The notes below the pieces were generated by a model, which made no database searches, was not told the origin of the DNA, and saw only the letters and a list, made by a program, of their open reading frames with translations. From a virus, in IMG/VR virus record IMGVR_UViG_3300023174_000074, positions 1 to 64,000 of that record: a stretch of DNA of 64,000 nt; one strand, given 5' to 3'. How positions within the stretch are numbered: position 1 is the first letter of the stretch; every line of letters starts with the position of its first letter. The translations under genes were made by a program, and so were the position numbers. Shown here in pieces: positions 5,061-57,339 of the stretch.

Positions 5061-5090
5061 GCCGAGCTAATTAGCTCGGCTTTATTTTTT
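5061..5090 (+). terminator. intrinsic terminator (20-bp palindrome)
   Basis: GCCGAGCTAATTAGCTCGGC plus T-rich tail. Confidence 0.75.
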
Positions 5091-9492: not shown

Positions 9493-9582
9493 AAAATAAA
9501 GAACATCGAGCCGCTTAAACCATATCGATATATAAAACCCAGCGGAAACACTCAAGTAAGTAAACAATTAAAAAAGACAAAT

Positions 9583-24976: not shown

Positions 24977-25013
24977 TAAATTTTTATCATCACGGGATAT
25001 ATAAAAATAAACC

Positions 25014-36615: not shown

Positions 36616-36995
36616 GGGTCATCAAGGTATTGATTGGCAGAGTTCGTTCTTTGAGATGCAGGCAGAGTTAGTATCGGAAACTCTTAAATAACCTATACGA
36701 AGCTTTAAACGGCAAAAAATCAGTTTGGGACGTTATCAACGCGTTTGGTACACCCGTAGCTGAGGTTGAGTTAGCTTACGCTGCATAACCTCCGGAGTCT
36801 CACTTACTCCGTTTAAAAAAATGTGAACACATTACTTCTTAGTGTCAGAAGCAAAATATCATTCAGTTAGTTGAAGAAAAGGAACTGCGTTAACCCAATC
36901 TTATATTTTGTAGAATTAGAAAATTTTACTAAGCCTGTGAATGAGTCCTTTGACTATCTGAGCAAGACGGGGGTTCAATTCCTCCATGATCCACC
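36616..36995 (+). ncRNA. ssrA: tmRNA
   Basis: Acceptor stem GGGTCAT/ATGATCC-A with G3:U pair; T-arm GGGGG-TTCAATT-CCTCC; tag ORF 36711-36788 GKKSVWDVINAFGTPVAEVELAYAA*. Confidence 0.92.
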
Positions 36996-37052
36996 GACGC
37001 GATTTCGTACTTTAGTTTAGATATATAAACTAAACTAAACTAAAGTACAGAA

Positions 37053-43612: not shown

Positions 43613-43841
43613 TTTTATTATGAATCTACAGAGGAATTTGAAAAGTGTACATACATAAAGAAATTCTTTGAAGAGCTAGAAAAAGAGGGCAAAGAATCCA
43701 AAATATATGAAGATATAGCAGGAGCTACAGGAGAAAGTTTTTCAGATAAAGCCTATAATTTTTAATCACTCATTCCTTGTTATATAATCGAAACCTTTGA
43801 TTAAAAAAGAATATAACAAAGAATAAACTTAACACTTGCTA

Positions 43842-45398
43842 ATGAAGTTTGAAGAATTAAACGACGAGCAAATATCTAAAATGTCAGATATTTACTGGAA
43901 TAGAGATTTGACATGGGATCAGAGAATGAAAAGCCTAAGTGATCTTATTGGAAAATCAGAACGAACTATCCAAAATTGGATTTCCAAATTAGGTATAACG
44001 GAAAAAGCATTAACAGAGTCACCGCAGTACATAAGGGCCAAAGAAAAAAAATTCGATAAGAAGAAGAAAAGGTTTATAATTACCTGGGCACAAAATGATA
44101 CTCCTGTTAATGAGGATTTTATACTAAACATAGAGGCTTACGCCAAAGTAATAGATGCAGATATTCACGTTATTGCAGGAAGATATAAAAACCCAACTTC
44201 GGTTTTCTCTGATAAAAGTTACGATGAGTGGTCAAATAGAATCTCAATATATCTTGATGCCAATCGCCACGAGGTTCATAAACATATGTGGATCATGTCA
44301 GATGTTAAAATCCAACCTACCGCAGTAGATCCGATGACAGGATTACAGGGTATGAGTGGAATTAATTCCTGTGTCTTTGGATCACCGAAAGTTCACATGG
44401 AAACAATTCCAGTTCTTGAAGGGAATCTACCTAAGATGATGATGACCACAGGGGCATGTACTCTTAAGAACTACACAGATTCCAAATCAGGAAAGAAAGG
44501 TGAATTCCATCATACACTAGGTTTTGTCGTTGTAGAGATAAAGGATGTGAATATATTTTTTGCCAGACAGGTTACAGCTACGGATAATGGCGATTTCTGT
44601 GATTTATATTACAAAGTTGAGAAGGGTGAGGTTTCTAAAATTAATTCAATTGCAGCTGCTGTACTCGGTGATATTCACTATGGTCAACATGACGAAAGAG
44701 TAATCTCCAAAACACTAGAGCTATTCAAAAATTTAAAACCAGATCATGTAATCCTACATGACGTTTTTGATGGCCTGTCTATTAACCACCACGAATCAAA
44801 AGATCCCTTTATACAATATCAAAGGGAAATAGACGGAACAAATTCACTGAGAGGCGAAGTTGAGGTAATGCTTAATGGATTAAAAAGTTTCGAAGATTAT
44901 AACGTTGTAATAGTTAGAAGTAACCACGACGACTTCTTAGATAGATGGCTAAAAGGAACAGATTGGAGGAAGACTGCCACTATGAAAAATTCCATTGAGT
45001 ACATGGAATATAGCGCATTGCTTCTTAAAGGAGCAGCGCCAAACGGTGTTATCCCATATTTAATAAATCAGGAGTATCCTAAATATAGAACTTTAGGCAG
45101 AAGTGATAGCTTTGTTATTAATGGCTGGGAATTAGCTCAACATGGTGATGTAGGATCAAACGGATCTAGGGGTTCTTTATTACAGTTCAGAAAATTAAAC
45201 ACTAAGATCGTAGTTGGACATTACCATTCGCCAGGAAGAAAGGACGGAGCACTTGCAGTCGGTACTTCAACTAAACTAAGAGTTAACTATAACATTGGAC
45301 CAAGTGGATGGCTTCAGTCGCATGTGATAATCCACCATGATGGTAAAGCTCAGCACATTAGTTTCATCAAAGGTGAATTCACCACGCTTAAATCATAA
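43842..45398 (+). CDS. HTH plus calcineurin-like phosphoesterase domain protein
   Basis: GKSERTIQNW HTH; GDIH, HDVFD, SNHD, QHGD, GHYH. Confidence 0.75.
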   Translation: MKFEELNDEQISKMSDIYWNRDLTWDQRMKSLSDLIGKSERTIQNWISKLGITEKALTESPQYIRAKEKKFDKKKKRFIITWAQNDTPVNEDFILNIEAYAKVIDADIHVIAGRYKNPTSVFSDKSYDEWSNRISIYLDANRHEVHKHMWIMSDVKIQPTAVDPMTGLQGMSGINSCVFGSPKVHMETIPVLEGNLPKMMMTTGACTLKNYTDSKSGKKGEFHHTLGFVVVEIKDVNIFFARQVTATDNGDFCDLYYKVEKGEVSKINSIAAAVLGDIHYGQHDERVISKTLELFKNLKPDHVILHDVFDGLSINHHESKDPFIQYQREIDGTNSLRGEVEVMLNGLKSFEDYNVVIVRSNHDDFLDRWLKGTDWRKTATMKNSIEYMEYSALLLKGAAPNGVIPYLINQEYPKYRTLGRSDSFVINGWELAQHGDVGSNGSRGSLLQFRKLNTKIVVGHYHSPGRKDGALAVGTSTKLRVNYNIGPSGWLQSHVIIHHDGKAQHISFIKGEFTTLKS

Positions 45399-45454: not shown

Positions 45455-46058
45455 ATGATAGAAAATAATAATCCACCTCTTCTACGCGAGCTAAAATTTA
45501 TAGCTGGCGTAGACGAGGTGGGCTGAAGGAAGAGGATGTTTAAGCGGACCTGTTGTTGCTGCGGTAGTTATTATGCCAAAGGATTTTTATGATTCTAGAA
45601 TTAAAGATAGCAAAGCTATCAAAAGTTTAAAGAAAAGAGAAGAGGCAGAAGCTCTAATAAAAGAGTATGCAATATCATGGGGTATAGGTGCTGCATCTCC
45701 ACAGGAGATAGATCAAATGAATATTTTACAAGCCACATTTCTAGCAATGAAAAGAGCTATAGATTCATGTAAGATAGTTCCTGATTTTCTCTATGTTGAC
45801 GGCGATAGATTTCCTGGACATAAAGAAATAAATTATGAATGCGTTATAAAAGGAGACTCTAAGGTTCCTTGCATATCAGCAGCATCAATACTAGCTAAAG
45901 TCCACCGGGATAGACTGATGAAATCAATTAGCCAGGAATTTCCGAATTATTTATGGGAGAAGAACGTTGGATACGGTACTCCAGAACACATCTCAGCAAT
46001 AAAAGAAGTTGGCTTATCTAAGCATCACAGAAAAACATTTTGTCAAAACTTTATATAA
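45455..46058 (+). pseudogene. rnhB: ribonuclease HII interrupted by a 7-nt insertion with in-frame TGA (possible recoding)
   Basis: ATG 45455...IAGVDEVG-TGA(45524); +1 frame resumes GRGCLSGPVVAA; DSK, VDG, KGD, AASILAKVHRD, GYGT..H. Confidence 0.8.
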
Positions 46059-46059
46059 T

Positions 46060-46344
46060 ATGGAAGATAATGCAATAGAACTAAAAGGAGAAAAAGCTAC
46101 GATAGCAGATCCACACGAAAATTTCAAAGACGCCGAATGGGTTTTCCAATTCGATGACGAAGCTCCGGTGGTATTTGCATGGAGCGACAGCTCAGAAGAA
46201 CCGGGAGATGTTACCATCACACTTAAGCCAAATGTGAAAAGTAGAATTACTTTTACTAATATAGACGGAAATAAGGTAATGAGTCTTTACTCTCGACCGA
46301 TAACAGGGGAAACTGTAAAAATTAGGGAGAGTCAAATAAAATAG
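46060..46344 (+). CDS. hypothetical protein
   Basis: ATG 46060 directly after rnhB stop. Confidence 0.55.
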   Translation: MEDNAIELKGEKATIADPHENFKDAEWVFQFDDEAPVVFAWSDSSEEPGDVTITLKPNVKSRITFTNIDGNKVMSLYSRPITGETVKIRESQIK

Positions 46345-46354
46345 AGAAGCATTT

Positions 46355-46840
46355 ATGGTATATACAACTAAAAAAATAATGCAGAATTATATTTTAAATG
46401 CGGAGATAATGTCCAATAGAAAATTCACGTCTAGAGAGATGTTGGACATTAAATCAGTAATGGAATTAAGGGAAGATTTCATTATCTTGTATAGCATCTT
46501 TATTGATTGTATGGAATCTAACTTTAATGGATGCTTAGAAATCTATGTTGAGGATCTCGAATTAGACACAGATCTACAAAACGATCTGGAAAAAGTAGTT
46601 AAAGATCTGGATTCAATTATACCAGGTGGTTTATCAAACGATTCAAAAATAGAGTGGACGACAGGAACCCCTGCCATAAACACGGTTTGGTATAAAGATA
46701 ATGGTAATTGGTTCGAAAGAATTTCTGAATCGGAAAGAGAATTCTTTAGTGATTCGAATTTCGAAGACGATGACTATGATAATCCATTTAGAGGTTATAA
46801 TGATCTTTCAAATGGACAAGAAGGAGATGATTTCTGGTAA
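46355..46840 (+). CDS. acidic hypothetical protein
   Basis: ORF. Confidence 0.55.
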   Translation: MVYTTKKIMQNYILNAEIMSNRKFTSREMLDIKSVMELREDFIILYSIFIDCMESNFNGCLEIYVEDLELDTDLQNDLEKVVKDLDSIIPGGLSNDSKIEWTTGTPAINTVWYKDNGNWFERISESEREFFSDSNFEDDDYDNPFRGYNDLSNGQEGDDFW

Positions 46841-46864
46841 TAAACAAGTGATTATATATAAAAC

Positions 46865-47802
46865 GTATTGAAGGGTGCCTTTCGTACTTAGTGTCCCGGG
46901 TCAAAATGACCTTAGAGTTGTTAGCAATAGCAGCGATGGGATTTTAAAAAAAAGAAAAAGGTAAATGAAAAACAACACAATCGGAGTACAGAGTACTCCA
47001 AAACCACAAGCTTGGGTAGCCGTATCCAACAACAGACAAAAAATCTACGGCGCAAAGGATGATCTAGTTTATCTAGACAGCGGACAGGAGTTTCAAATCG
47101 AGCTCTATAATCCAACACCAACATCCTATTTAGCTAAAATCTATCTCAATGACAAGGTTATCAGTAACTCGGGTTTAGTACTTAGACCTGGACAAAGATA
47201 CTTCTTGGATCGTTTCATCGATGAGAAGAAGAAATTCTTATTTTCGACTTACGATGTTGATGCTACAGATGAGGTTAAAGAGGCAATTAAAAACAACGGT
47301 AAGGTAAAGGTTGAGTTCTACCCAGAACAAACAAATTACAGTTTCACGCTTTCGACTGGCACAACCTATGTTCCTTACCATCAAACTTGGATAAACAATC
47401 CAGGAACAGTAAATCCAACTATTTTCGGGGGAACTACTGCACCTAATGTTTACTTTACACAAACTTCATCAATCGGGGGTAATCCAATTATCTACTCTTC
47501 TAACAGCTTATCTGGGGTAGTTAACTGCTCAACTGCGGGTTCATTTGAAACTGGTAGAGTAGAAAAAGGTGAAAAATCCGATCAGGACTTTGGAAAAGAT
47601 TCGGGTAGTTACTCCTGGTATTGTTGTTACACATCAGAGTATCAAATTCTTCCGAGATCAGTTAAACCAGTAGAGGTTACTGAGATTAGAGATTATTGTA
47701 CAGTATGTGGAACAAGATCAAAGAAAAAAACATGGAAATTCTGCCCTAACTGTGGCGAATCTCTAGATCAATAAATTTCGTACAAAGGCACCCATTCAAT
47801 AC
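46865..47802. repeat. 23-bp imperfect inverted repeat enclosing one gene (arms 46865-46887 and 47780-47802)
   Basis: GTATTGAAGGGTGCCTTTCGTAC vs GTACAAAGGCACCCATTCAATAC. Confidence 0.88.
46965..47774 (+). CDS. hypothetical protein with beta-sandwich-like N-domain and C-terminal zinc ribbon
   Basis: EFQIELYNP...LVLRPGQRYFLDRF; YCTVCG...FCPNCG. Confidence 0.75.
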   Translation: MKNNTIGVQSTPKPQAWVAVSNNRQKIYGAKDDLVYLDSGQEFQIELYNPTPTSYLAKIYLNDKVISNSGLVLRPGQRYFLDRFIDEKKKFLFSTYDVDATDEVKEAIKNNGKVKVEFYPEQTNYSFTLSTGTTYVPYHQTWINNPGTVNPTIFGGTTAPNVYFTQTSSIGGNPIIYSSNSLSGVVNCSTAGSFETGRVEKGEKSDQDFGKDSGSYSWYCCYTSEYQILPRSVKPVEVTEIRDYCTVCGTRSKKKTWKFCPNCGESLDQ

Positions 47803-47856
47803 TTTTTACACGAAATTTTATTTGGCTTTTACAGTAGAACCTATAAATACAAAACA

Positions 47857-49791
47857 TTGAGAGTTTTTTACATTGTACCACATCTGTCTACCGGTGGGAT
47901 GCCTGAGTATCTAAAGAATAAAATAGACAAAATTAAAGACGAAGCGGAAGTTTGGGTGTTTGAACAAAAACACGAAGTTTCTTATATTACCATTAGGAAA
48001 AGAATAGAATCCATAATAGGCCGAGAAAGAATAGTAACCTGGGGAGACAAGCCAGAGGACATCTTGATTAGGGCTATCAAAGAAATGAAGCCTGATATTA
48101 TCCACTTTGAAGAACCCTGTGAGCAATTCTTAAGTCACCATTTGCTGGATATTATATTCTCTGATGATAGAGAATATAAGATATTCGAAACAATGCATGA
48201 CTCGTCAGTTTCATCTAGAGAAAAAATATACCTACCTGATAAATTCATAGTTATTAGTCCTTGGCAGGTTAGTCTTCTAAAAGATCTTAATGTACCGATA
48301 GAGGTTGTCGAGCATGCGATATCCAAGAAACCTGGAAGGGATTACCATGAAAGCAGGGCGAAATTAGGCCTAGATCCCAATAAAAAACACATAATCCAAA
48401 TTGGTATATTTACTCCAAGAAAGAACCAGAGAGAAACTGCTGAACTCGCTAAATTACTACCAGAGATAGAATTCCATTTCATCGGAACCTTAGCCGATAA
48501 CTTTAAATGGTATTGGGAACCGGTTACAAGTAATCTTCCTGCTAATTGTAAAATATGGGGAGAAAGAGATGACGTTGATTTATTCTATCAGGCAGCAGAT
48601 CTTGTTATATTTCCTTCGATACCTTTATTCAATGATAAAGAAACAAGTCCACTCGTTATAAAGGAAGCTATATCTTGGAAATCACCATTGCTTCTAAGGA
48701 ATCTTTCAGTATACGTTGACATGTATCAGGAATCAAACACTCTGAAATTCTTCAGAAGTGAAGATAAGAGTGAAATATTAAACCAGATAAGAGAAATATT
48801 AGAAATCAAAAAAGAATTAAAGATAAGCAATAAGAGCGATATGTTTGTGCATAGATTCTCCCCTGAAAATAATAGAATTGATATAGTTTACATTGGGGAT
48901 AGCAGAAACATAAACGAGATTGAATGTGACGTTTATGTTAAAGACATAGACAGTGGATCTAATATATTCCATTGTGGAATAAGATTTAATCTGGGTGGAT
49001 CGTACTGGATAATTCCCATTCCGATTCACATCTACGATTTCCAAAATAATCCAAACTTTGGAGGATTTCTCATTGAATATAGACAGGAAAACGATGTAAT
49101 CTCTGAATCTGTAATTAGATTCAGAAACGTAAGCAAGAAGATCTGTAGACTTGATACAAAAGATCCAATATTTAGAAACTATGAAGAATTCTTTACCGAT
49201 CGAATATATGGAACTATGACCGACTGTATATCCAGGAAAGGGGTTGCTATAGATGTTGGTGCTAATGTTGGATTGTTTACTGAATTCTGTCTAGACGCAG
49301 GATTTGCAAAAGTTTATTCAATCGAACCAAATCCACTAGCTGCAAATGAATTCAGAAAGATGCACTCCGATAATCCCAATGTTATTTTTGAAGAAATAGC
49401 TTTAACTGGTAACGGAGAGGATGTTAGTCTTAGCGTAGATCCAGGAAACACTCTGGTTTCGAGTATAGCAAAAACAATAAGCAATAATACTGTCTTAGTA
49501 AAATCAGAAACACTGAATTCTCTAATCGAAAGAGTCGGTGAGATAGATTTACTTAAAATCGATATCGAAGGTGCTGAGTATGATTTGCTAGAGGTGACAG
49601 ATATTGGATTGCTAGCTAAAGCTAATAACATAATTTTAGAATTCCATGATAATAATGACGGTAGAGTTAATAAGCTAACAGAGAAATTAATCAGTGCAGA
49701 TTTTGAGGTTAAGCTTTATAATGAATTAATACAGTATGAGGTTGATGACAGCGCAGATCATGGGGTAATATTTGCAAAAAAGAAAATATAA
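47857..49791 (+). CDS. GT4 glycosyltransferase fused to FkbM-family methyltransferase
   Basis: PHLSTGG, RKNQ, ETSPLVIKEA; DVGANVG, EPN, KIDIEGAE. Confidence 0.85.
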   Translation: MRVFYIVPHLSTGGMPEYLKNKIDKIKDEAEVWVFEQKHEVSYITIRKRIESIIGRERIVTWGDKPEDILIRAIKEMKPDIIHFEEPCEQFLSHHLLDIIFSDDREYKIFETMHDSSVSSREKIYLPDKFIVISPWQVSLLKDLNVPIEVVEHAISKKPGRDYHESRAKLGLDPNKKHIIQIGIFTPRKNQRETAELAKLLPEIEFHFIGTLADNFKWYWEPVTSNLPANCKIWGERDDVDLFYQAADLVIFPSIPLFNDKETSPLVIKEAISWKSPLLLRNLSVYVDMYQESNTLKFFRSEDKSEILNQIREILEIKKELKISNKSDMFVHRFSPENNRIDIVYIGDSRNINEIECDVYVKDIDSGSNIFHCGIRFNLGGSYWIIPIPIHIYDFQNNPNFGGFLIEYRQENDVISESVIRFRNVSKKICRLDTKDPIFRNYEEFFTDRIYGTMTDCISRKGVAIDVGANVGLFTEFCLDAGFAKVYSIEPNPLAANEFRKMHSDNPNVIFEEIALTGNGEDVSLSVDPGNTLVSSIAKTISNNTVLVKSETLNSLIERVGEIDLLKIDIEGAEYDLLEVTDIGLLAKANNIILEFHDNNDGRVNKLTEKLISADFEVKLYNELIQYEVDDSADHGVIFAKKKI

Positions 49792-56869: not shown

Positions 56870-56966
56870 ATATAACGGTGGCGATTGGCGAAGTAAAAGC
56901 CTTGCACTACCGTTGATGTTCAGCACTACACTTGATGGCTTTTATTTTGCCAATTGCGTGTTAGCG
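56870..56966 (+). other. attC-like recombination site 1
   Basis: ATATAAC...GTTAGCG ends; internal arms GCGATTGGCGAAGTAAAAGCC / GGCTTTTATTTTGCCAATTGC. Confidence 0.65.
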
Positions 56967-57015
56967 GTTCGGGCTTCTCCGCTTTTAGAAGTCCAAAATT
57001 TAATAACAAAAAAAA

Positions 57016-57246
57016 ATGAAAAGAGAATTTAATGTTTACAAAAGTTGGTTCGCTGGATTTAGAGCAAAAGATTTGTTTCCAATATTCAGTTTTACCAAAA
57101 ATGTTCAAGGCTGGTTTTTTACTCGTGTATGGTCATTGAATTGGTTTACTTACGCTTTGTCGTTTAGTTTGACAAAAACAAGCGATTTGAACGAAGATAG
57201 AAGTTTGTCACACGAGAAAAATGTCAAACGGTATATGCTGTCTTAG
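57016..57246 (+). CDS. cassette-borne hypothetical protein
   Basis: Single ORF between two attC-like sites. Confidence 0.55.
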   Translation: MKREFNVYKSWFAGFRAKDLFPIFSFTKNVQGWFFTRVWSLNWFTYALSFSLTKTSDLNEDRSLSHEKNVKRYMLS

Positions 57247-57252
57247 CCTGAC

Positions 57253-57307
57253 CGCTAACGGATTGCAGCTATGCGCTCGTTTTAATGGCGCATAGGTGCT
57301 GTTATGT
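57253..57307 (+). other. attC-like recombination site 2
   Basis: CGCTAAC...GTTATGT ends; internal GCAGCTATGCGC / GCGCATAGGTGC. Confidence 0.65.
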
Positions 57308-57339
57308 GATGTGCTTTTATTAACCGAAAATAAATTATT

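Follow-up and report, generated by a model that had tools for sequence, protein, structure and literature searches.

The 64,000-nt stretch of DNA analyzed here (the window) forms positions 1 to 64,000, the first 64 kb, of the 126.8-kb virus record IMGVR_UViG_3300023174_000074 from IMG/VR, and the subject of our analysis is a plus-strand gene at 46965..47774, encoding a 269-amino-acid (aa) protein, that is enclosed by a pair of inverted repeats. Comparison with related phages indicates that these repeats very probably pair as opposite strands of an RNA helix, here called P0, that ties the start of the mRNA to the bases just past its stop codon; P0 adjoins a leader predicted to fold as a three-way junction, and the comparisons presented here show that the predicted helix and junction are both evolutionarily maintained structures of sense-strand RNA. 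By analogy with end-paired bacterial mRNAs, we regard it as probable, if far from certain, that P0 serves as an end clamp that hides the 5' terminus, leaves little naked untranslated region (UTR), and stabilizes a strongly expressed message. The record is estimated to be 46% complete, has nearly all of its genes on the same strand, and has a GC content of ~33%; near-identical DNA is present in lake and freshwater metagenomes, and the window is a piece of a freshwater, Lak-related huge phage.

In the window, the left arm of P0 (46865..46887, plus strand; GTATTGAAGGGTGCCTTTCGTAC), with which the mRNA would begin, is the reverse complement of the right arm (47780..47802, plus strand; GTACAAAGGCACCCATTCAATAC) except for one extra base per arm (C46883 and either A47794 or T47795), giving a helix of 23 bp plus two bulges. 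The stop codon, TAA, occupies 47772-47774, the right arm begins 5 nt past it, and a run of five Ts follows at 47803-47807. An original prediction, made by a model from the sequence alone, had given these arm coordinates, the two single-base bulges, the 5-nt gap, and the T run, all of which proved exact on reading the sequence. The arms were the longest inverted repeat found within 46000-48600 in a repeat search, and their RNAduplex energy of -34.9 kcal/mol compares with -12.6 ± 3.0 kcal/mol for 200 dinucleotide shuffles of the 3' region, none of which was as good (0/200). Among the 4,950 pairs of intergenic regions in the record, the arm pair ranked 5th by local-alignment score (whole-region RNAduplex comparison gave meaningless long interrupted duplexes).

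Loci containing the gene were collected in two rounds, the first comprising 22 loci from IMG/VR and 11 from GenBank phages and the second 80 further loci out of metagenomes (locus numbers carry the prefix L). With RNAduplex, 14 of the 25 first-round loci tested had 0/200 shuffles as good as the native arms and 1 had 1/200, while 10 showed nothing; among 68 second-round loci, 48 had 0/100 shuffles as good, 11 had 1 to 5, and 9 had 10 or more. Overall, roughly two thirds of relatives have a P0. In a 64-by-64 matrix of dereplicated loci, cognate arms averaged -21.6 kcal/mol versus -11.0 kcal/mol (standard deviation [SD], 5.1) for the 4,032 noncognate combinations, and the cognate arm was the best partner in 20 of 64 rows and within the best three in 38. 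P0 energy was -20 kcal/mol or lower in 41 of these 64 loci, weaker than -14 kcal/mol in 19, and between these values in 4; by single linkage, the 41 strong helices fell into 12 arm-sequence families, with a G-N-G-C-C core common to many. Within the clade of the window, single-pair compensation was seen in L003 (GTATTA with TAATAC) and L009 (CATAC with GTATA), and L007 to L010 carry the compensated arms AAAGGTGCC with GGCACCTTT. Other clades have quite different arms with the pairing kept, as in L020 (TGTGTTAACTCC/GGAGTTAACA) and L032 (TTTATAGCTGTTCG/CGAACAGCTATAAA). The proposal that the mRNA ends pair as a panhandle is thus borne out by a helix that has been kept through compensatory changes and through wholesale replacement of both arms in many relatives.

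The geometry of P0 is conserved although its sequence is not. Across 42 loci, left-arm pairing ends 0 to 5 nt before P1, the basal helix of the junction (median, 1; 0 in 17 loci), the right arm begins 2 to 15 nt past the stop codon (median, 8), and the helix core measures about 10 to 27 bp (median, 18.5); the helix-trimming rule mis-parsed L095 (2 bp) and L099 (7 bp). Because P0 lies so close to P1, stacking of the one helix on the other is plausible. The 15 first-round duplexes contain 313 Watson-Crick and 12 G:U pairs together with three 1-by-1 mismatches (C:U, C:U, and G:A), none of them A:C, and the duplexes of 43 loci contain 777 Watson-Crick and 49 G:U pairs, a count in which RNAduplex lists only canonical pairs by construction. 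The presence of G:U but not A:C points to sense-strand RNA, in line with the earlier suggestion, made for the leader, that G:U pairs mark an RNA-level structure.

Double-stranded RNA of this kind could be a target for RNase III, whose substrates contain ~20 bp or more of near-continuous duplex and whose cut stems flank the early mRNAs of T7. The stem in the window, 23 bp with bulges, amounts to about two helical turns, and since P0 abuts the 10-bp P1, even a short P0 could still present ~20 bp or more of stacked duplex. Many P0 cores are nevertheless too short alone, given the lengths reported above, and excision would be superfluous, because a promoter-like motif and a terminator-like hairpin belong to the gene itself. 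We therefore think it distinctly unlikely that the monocistronic mRNA is excised or matured by cleavage of P0, whether by itself or stacked on P1.

The three-way-junction leader (46888..46947, plus strand) was delineated by minimum-free-energy (MFE) folding, RNAalifold, and a covariance model, R1, built from 22 sequences and containing 23 pairs. P1 pairs 46888-46897 with 46938-46947 (TTAGTGTCCC/GGGATTTTAA) and closes two hairpins, P2 (46898-46903 with 46907-46912; GGTCA-AAA-TGACC) and P3 (46917-46923 with 46928-46934; GTTGTTA-GCAA-TAGCAGC). The MFE structure of 46850-46964, at -26.5 kcal/mol (z, -2.4; 3/200 shuffles as good), contains this junction just as originally drawn, whereas the GNRA loop that was drawn with it (GCAA) is not conserved across the alignments of relatives; RNAalifold applied to aligned upstream regions recovered P1, P2, and P3. 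Between the junction and the start codon lies an A-rich, unstructured linker containing AAGG (46948..46964, plus strand; unpaired in the MFE structure), the presumed ribosome-binding region, and the columns past P1 are A-rich in 63 aligned rows.

R1 matched the window at 46884-46951 with 81.3 bits, its single match in the whole 126.8-kb record. Exactly one match per source was found in 25 of 25 first-round sources (22 of which were training sequences), always just upstream of the gene, and among 10 huge-phage records of 270 to 735 kb there was one match in 9 and two in the 10th; the junction was present in all 11 huge-phage records searched. In 68 of the 80 new metagenome loci, R1 matched upstream of the gene on the sense strand. 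Of the 12 loci without an upstream match, 3 have less than 100 nt of upstream flank; L077 has a match downstream. The Lak loci L026 to L030 (Lak-A/B/C) keep the junction, and long-range arms were not found in them.

Pair counts argue strongly for the fold. In 63 distinct new rows, 90.6% of cells were paired versus 38.9 to 50.3% when the 3' partners were slid by 1 to 3 columns, 22 of the 23 pairs were changed on both sides, and the covariation score of 0.719 compares with at most 0.248 for slid partners and was reached by 0/500 column shuffles; the corresponding values in the first set were 86.5% versus 38 to 49%, 19 of 23 pairs, and a score of 0.577. The junction strands are 0 nt between P1 and P2, U-N-G-A between P2 and P3 (J2/3, 46913-46916), and R-A-W between P3 and P1 (J3/1, 46935-46937), with the U, G, A, and A invariant in 63/63 rows. 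Two wobbles are near invariant, U:G in P3 (62/63 rows) and G:U in P1 (51/63 rows); on the opposite strand they would be A:C mismatches, which argues for sense-strand RNA. The leader is, on the evidence of covariation, a conserved RNA structure with a predicted motif length of 67 nt. The covariation among homologs on which the original prediction depended is thus evident in the junction, and paired flanks occur in about two thirds of them.

Searches of Rfam 15 agree with the initial impression that no known riboswitch or ribozyme is present. Over the whole window at the gathering score, the only match was a transfer-messenger RNA (tmRNA) at 36616-36996; within 46800-47000 at E ≤ 10, there were two chance matches of 13 to 15 bits against cutoffs of 70 to 80; and in 12 diverse relatives at E ≤ 0.5, nothing fell on the leader or the arms. 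Hammerhead ribozymes have the core strands CUGANGA and GAA and a cleavage-site strand between stems III and I; the strands of the present junction (0 nt, U-N-G-A, and R-A-W) differ, and Rfam returned no ribozyme match. Riboswitches combine a strongly conserved core for ligand binding with an expression platform; in the junction, the helices covary, but only ~5 positions are invariant, and neither MFE folding nor arm-versus-ribosome-binding-site pairing revealed a terminator or a ribosome-binding-site-sequestering alternative beside the junction.

A second copy of the junction (56.9 bits) is present in a 735-kb phage, at 371695-371758 on the minus strand of LR756501.1 (locus L197), where it precedes a gene for an unrelated 215-aa protein with a DESGSM motif, presumably von Willebrand factor A-like, that heads a run of four small open reading frames (ORFs).

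These properties bear on whether the junction acts as a regulatory sensor, binding a trans-acting factor (a protein, whether the product of the gene itself or some other of phage or host origin, or else a small ligand) that P0 couples to translation or decay. The motif is tied to one gene family down to 31 to 40% protein identity, as is the case for autoregulatory leaders; the invariant U, G, A, and A and the near-invariant wobbles are typical of recognition sites; and the gene product carries a zinc ribbon. However, ~5 invariant positions are few for a metabolite-binding core, and no expression platform was found: pairing of the left arm with the ribosome-binding site averaged -7.8 kcal/mol for cognate versus -6.6 kcal/mol (SD, 2.3) for noncognate combinations, the cognate arm being within the best three in only 4/41 loci. 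In addition, L032 and L033 keep the junction without the zinc ribbon, and the second copy in LR756501 precedes an unrelated gene; these two observations weaken simple autoregulation through the zinc ribbon. A sensor is possible, but we hold it to be rather unlikely. Pairing between the left arm and the ribosome-binding site was also considered as a hok-like switch and was rejected as a general mechanism, there being no cognate signal and only a 7-bp match confined to the window clade.

The position of the left arm relative to a putative promoter suggests where the transcript begins. A promoter-like motif, TATATATAAAA (46853..46863, plus strand), lies directly upstream of the left arm. Nine of the 10 matches to ATATATAWA in the window are on the plus strand, and in the whole record 11 of 12 distinct plus-strand sites are intergenic, though only 10.6% of the record is; the intergenic sites sit 11 to 134 nt before an ORF start. 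A TATA-like element just 5' of the left arm was seen in most relatives (by eye, without a formal count), and a regular expression for the TATA distance, which was too strict a pattern, found the motif in 19/42 loci. Because the TATA-like motif closely precedes the arm and marks sites upstream of ORFs, the left arm is probably the very 5' end of the transcript. In several lineages, a GGAAC(T)TT block lies upstream of the left arm, ~17 to 25 nt upstream of the TATA-like motif (L047, L048, L054, L055, L057, L065, L067, L073, L084, L103, and L104, by eye and uncounted); together, the two blocks suggest a two-block promoter for the gene in those lineages.

On the 3' side, a weak local hairpin pairs AAATTTCGT (47773-47781) with ACGAAATTT (47810-47818) and is followed by a U-rich tail (47773..47823 in all, plus strand; from the repeat search and folding). 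It is a probable terminator. Its loop contains the right arm, with only 7 nt between that arm and the 3' strand of the hairpin. An A/U-rich hairpin in this place recurs, with its sequence changed, in 13 of the 17 window-clade relatives folded, with energies of only -5 to -10 kcal/mol, and the window fold is no better than shuffles (z, -0.55). The original prediction had also entertained P0 itself as a terminator with an ~890-nt loop, and as a general reading this is not supported. The U tract expected of an intrinsic terminator formed by the long-range stem is not conserved: the five Ts of the window are replaced even in close relatives (AAATT in L007, AATCA in L008, ACCCC in L010, and ACTCT in L011), and in other clades a separate canonical terminator lies past the right arm (L020, L032, L033, L054, L064, L072, and L078).

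The same data bear on a broader form of 3'-end transcription control, in which the 5' arm would provide the upstream strand of a terminator or would compete with the local hairpin and so permit read-through into glycosyltransferase genes. T runs past the right arm occur not only in the window but in L098, L082, L094, and L103, and in the window clade the right arm lies inside the loop of a local hairpin with a U tail, so that the two folds are mutually exclusive. Yet the T run is absent in the close relatives just named, most other clades have an independent canonical terminator past the right arm, the weak local hairpin does not surpass shuffles in the window, and a TATAAATA motif of its own precedes the downstream gene at 47842-47849. 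Such control is, in our judgment, very unlikely. The TATAAATA motif (plus strand), which we take to be the T4 late-promoter consensus, stands just before a glycosyltransferase/FkbM-methyltransferase ORF at 47857-49791, so the enclosed gene and its neighbor seem to have separate promoters.

The end clamp, which we favor, would act in cis on a single monocistronic phage mRNA. Transcription would very probably start just past the TATA-like motif, and the first ~20 nt of the RNA would pair with the ~20 nt that start 5 nt past the stop codon. With P0 abutting P1, the A-rich ribosome-binding region and the whole ORF would form a closed loop that leaves and reenters the same helical stack. The clamp would thereby hide the 5' terminus and leave hardly any untranslated RNA exposed, would shield the message against both 5'-end-dependent and endonucleolytic decay and so raise expression, and may also hold the stop codon beside the start region. 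We infer from this arrangement that P0 would function in mRNA stabilization or as a boost to translation. In the window clade, the simplest order of events would be that the local hairpin forms during termination and P0 afterwards.

The same closed loop could also act on translation itself, terminating ribosomes or 30S subunits being handed back to the start of their own ORF in a self-coupled reinitiation that multiplies output. The stop codon, ~8 nt from the helix, and the A-rich start region, ~17 nt from it, would be held together by P0 and P1, the conserved junction would serve as a docking or stand-by platform, and the gain would come in a host group with poor initiation in the absence of Shine-Dalgarno pairing. 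We consider such ribosome recycling unlikely; if it is true, bacteria would have an equivalent of the closed loop of eukaryotes.

Several points weigh against an RNA end clamp. About a third of relatives lack a significant P0, so the gene can dispense with it; in the first round, RNAduplex against shuffles found no P0 in any of the four distinct Lak loci or in L017/L018, L031, and L034. Protection of the 5' end would be had more simply from a local hairpin there, such as is present in L034. For 3'-end protection P0 is not needed, because most clades have a distinct terminator hairpin past the right arm. In the window clade, the covarying local hairpin and the full P0 are topologically incompatible, since together they would form an impossible pseudoknot, and the RNA must therefore alternate between them. 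If transcription starts 6 to 8 nt past the TATA motif, the outer 3 to 5 bp of the stem lie outside the RNA. The evidence for pairing has its own built-in leanings: the G:U excess arises in part from RNAduplex, which scores G:U as pairing but A:C as mismatched; the pair counts come from alignments that had been fitted to the structure of the model, a circumstance that favors that structure; and at least five of the new loci share bit scores with training sequences and are probably near-identical to them.

To our knowledge, closure by end pairing is known for only a few mRNAs of bacteria or phages; the textbook cases are hok, hbs, and icaR, each of them found singly. Long-range helices formed by sequences just 5' and 3' of an entire gene product are also present in bacterial 16S and 23S rRNA processing, where they are RNase III substrates in a noncoding precursor; in the phage case, by contrast, the helix encloses a translated ORF, and the length of many P0 helices falls below ~20 bp. 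The closest experimental precedent for an end clamp is the hbs mRNA of Bacillus subtilis, in which a 14-bp helix formed by the 5' UTR with the 3' UTR modulates cleavage by RNase Y, adjoins a structured leader, restricts the access of ribonucleases, and couples stability with translation (Braun, Durand & Condon 2017, PMC5737220). The likeness lies in a long-range UTR-UTR helix of a monocistronic mRNA beside a structured leader, and it is by analogy that hbs lends support to a clamp. The two differ in that there is no homology between them, and the phage helix stands at the very 5' end, abuts a three-way junction, begins 2 to 15 nt past the stop codon, and is supported by covariation across dozens of lineages, the phage case being known from sequence alone.

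In hok mRNA (tac/fbi fold-back), which belongs to type I toxin-antitoxin systems, pairing of the 5' and 3' ends spans the entire full-length message, closing and stabilizing it; the closed form blocks translation by sequestering the mok Shine-Dalgarno sequence, and 3' processing opens the mRNA (PMC9841398). Conservation of 5'-3' end pairing by covariation is what hok and the phage gene have in common. Unlike in hok, the phage ribosome-binding region is unpaired in the MFE structure and shows no cognate signal with the left arm, and the message encodes a 269-aa Ig-like (immunoglobulin-like)/zinc-ribbon protein instead of a small toxin; an antisense RNA was not searched for. The icaR 3' UTR of Staphylococcus aureus reportedly pairs with the Shine-Dalgarno region, represses translation, and invites RNase III, whereas the phage ribosome-binding region stays unpaired in the MFE structure. 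The icaR 3' UTR is described as pairing with the 5' UTR of its own mRNA (PMC3868564). The principle of end pairing is common to the phage case and to hok, hbs, and icaR, whereas sequences and logic differ, and the phage case contributes a new junction motif.

In the open-access literature searched, we found no description of an RNA motif or of UTR pairing in Lak or other huge phages. The same end-paired design has been kept by compensatory evolution in dozens of huge-phage lineages, which offer a natural, sequence-diverse test set for the effect of 5'-3' end pairing on decay and translation in bacteria. P0 and the junction may also be a candidate high-expression or stability module for the hosts of huge phages, and the 67-nt junction would be a well-supported new family for RNA databases.

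Inverted repeats on either side of a gene could instead be a DNA-level element, such as transposon terminal inverted repeats, the ends of an invertible segment, or an integron-like cassette. The same record does hold small genes bounded by 22- to 28-nt inverted repeats, and the P0 arms, when joined, form an imperfect palindrome with extrahelical bases that is superficially attC-like. Integron cassettes, however, carry RYYYAAC/GTTRRRY core sites at their boundaries; the arms in the window start GTATTG and end CAATAC, the ends of other arm families are unrelated, and the flanking genes are conserved. Features of an insertion sequence or a miniature inverted-repeat transposable element were likewise not found: there is no direct repeat outside the arms (AAAAC versus TTTTT), the enclosed protein has only sub-cutoff zinc-ribbon matches, the gene is single copy in the record, and no transposase or recombinase was present among the ORFs scanned beside it. 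The cassettes of the record all begin with GTTAT and end with ATAAC, and no P0 arm family has such conserved termini. The window clade keeps the neighbors on both sides (the upstream ORF is common to 10 loci and the downstream ORF to 9), the gene has 1,164 homologs and occurs in one copy per genome, and the left arm abuts an RNA helix, with pairs that include G:U and no A:C. The original prediction had raised the possibility of inversion between the arms; no inversion joint, and no deletion or excision joint, was seen in four sequencing runs, where contigs only were available and rare variants could be missed. A DNA element thus appears extremely improbable, and the cassette or transposon reading was rejected on the strength of the conserved neighbors and the lack of GTTAT...ATAAC termini.

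The cassettes of the record are of some interest in their own right. Cassette-like small ORFs lie in the record at ~87.2 to 90.3 kb (L116, 2203-2424, 3704-4253, 4611-4963, and 5082-5323), with a further one in the window at 56870-57310, each bounded by 15- to 28-nt inverted repeats with a GTTAT start and an ATAAC end. In close homologs of one cargo gene (L119 to L123), the termini are kept while the inner sequence is changed, and most of its distant homologs are without repeats (median flank score, 14; 76 loci). Like P0, these cassettes have inverted repeats immediately 5' and 3' of a single ORF; unlike P0, they have conserved core termini, occur in arrays, and carry genes that lack repeats in most other phages, whereas P0 lacks core termini, stays at one genomic position, encloses a conserved gene, and lies against an RNA junction.

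The enclosed gene is a conserved huge-phage gene, the product of which comprises an N-terminal Ig-like beta-sandwich, a low-complexity linker, and a C-terminal zinc ribbon. Homologs with 31 to 39% identity occur in Prevotella Lak phages and in 460- to 735-kb "uncultured phage" genomes, and none of the 1,164 family members at E ≤ 0.001 is informatively named. For this protein, Pfam gave only zinc-ribbon matches below the cutoff, PHROGs gave no match, and a profile search of the PDB gave only zinc-ribbon/L33-like tails (E, 0.07 to 0.6). An AlphaFold 2 model from a 29-row alignment, with a mean predicted local distance difference test score of 53.7, places a moderately confident beta-sandwich at residues 15-121 and a CxxC...CxxC ribbon at the C terminus, joined by a disordered linker rich in S, T, and N; the best structure-search Z score, 6.8, was to generic Ig/major sperm protein folds and within background. 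In L032 and L033, the zinc ribbon is replaced by a different tail. The reading frames of the Lak homologs (L026 to L030) are interrupted by TAG codons, first at codon 10 or 23, and are full length only when TAG is read as sense.

The sequencing data comprised one DNA run and three RNA-library runs, available as contigs only, which give no starts, ends, strand, or level. Contigs from one metatranscriptome cover 46897-47512 and 47502-47788 with at least 99% identity, and a second library covers 47212-47460. As evidence of expression this is weak: the contigs establish presence in RNA libraries only and show neither ends nor strand. Runs X19 and X20 yielded only parts or diverged relatives, and gaps in RNA-library coverage beside the gene (e.g., 47820-48300) prove nothing.

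Elsewhere in the record, the best inverted repeat measures 41 nt (118501-118541/125883-125923; score, 72), with its arms 7.3 kb apart. An A/T-rich inverted repeat at 43592-43628/45412-45450 (score, 37; 8th of 4,950) flanks the gene for a 520-aa "DNA transfer protein" at 43836-45398 and may be due to chance in A/T-rich DNA. The tmRNA at 36616-36996 (plus strand) is full length in Rfam (48.1 bits versus a gathering score of 47), whereas ARAGORN reported no tRNA or tmRNA in the window. Motifs of the (G)ATATATAAA type occur on the plus strand of the window at 9528, 17003, 19432, 24997, 35644, 37021, 46854, 60419, and 62304 and further along the record at 69954, 103536, and 125386; several, e.g., those at 24997, 37021, and 60419, are bracketed by short local inverted repeats, and the sites look like a set of phage promoters placed inside hairpins. 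A different intergenic element of ~40 nt, TTTTTTATCCCGGG...TTTGTAAAAAA, is found in both orientations at record positions 5083, 7668 (minus strand), 54568, 85346, and 105644 and may be a second promoter class.

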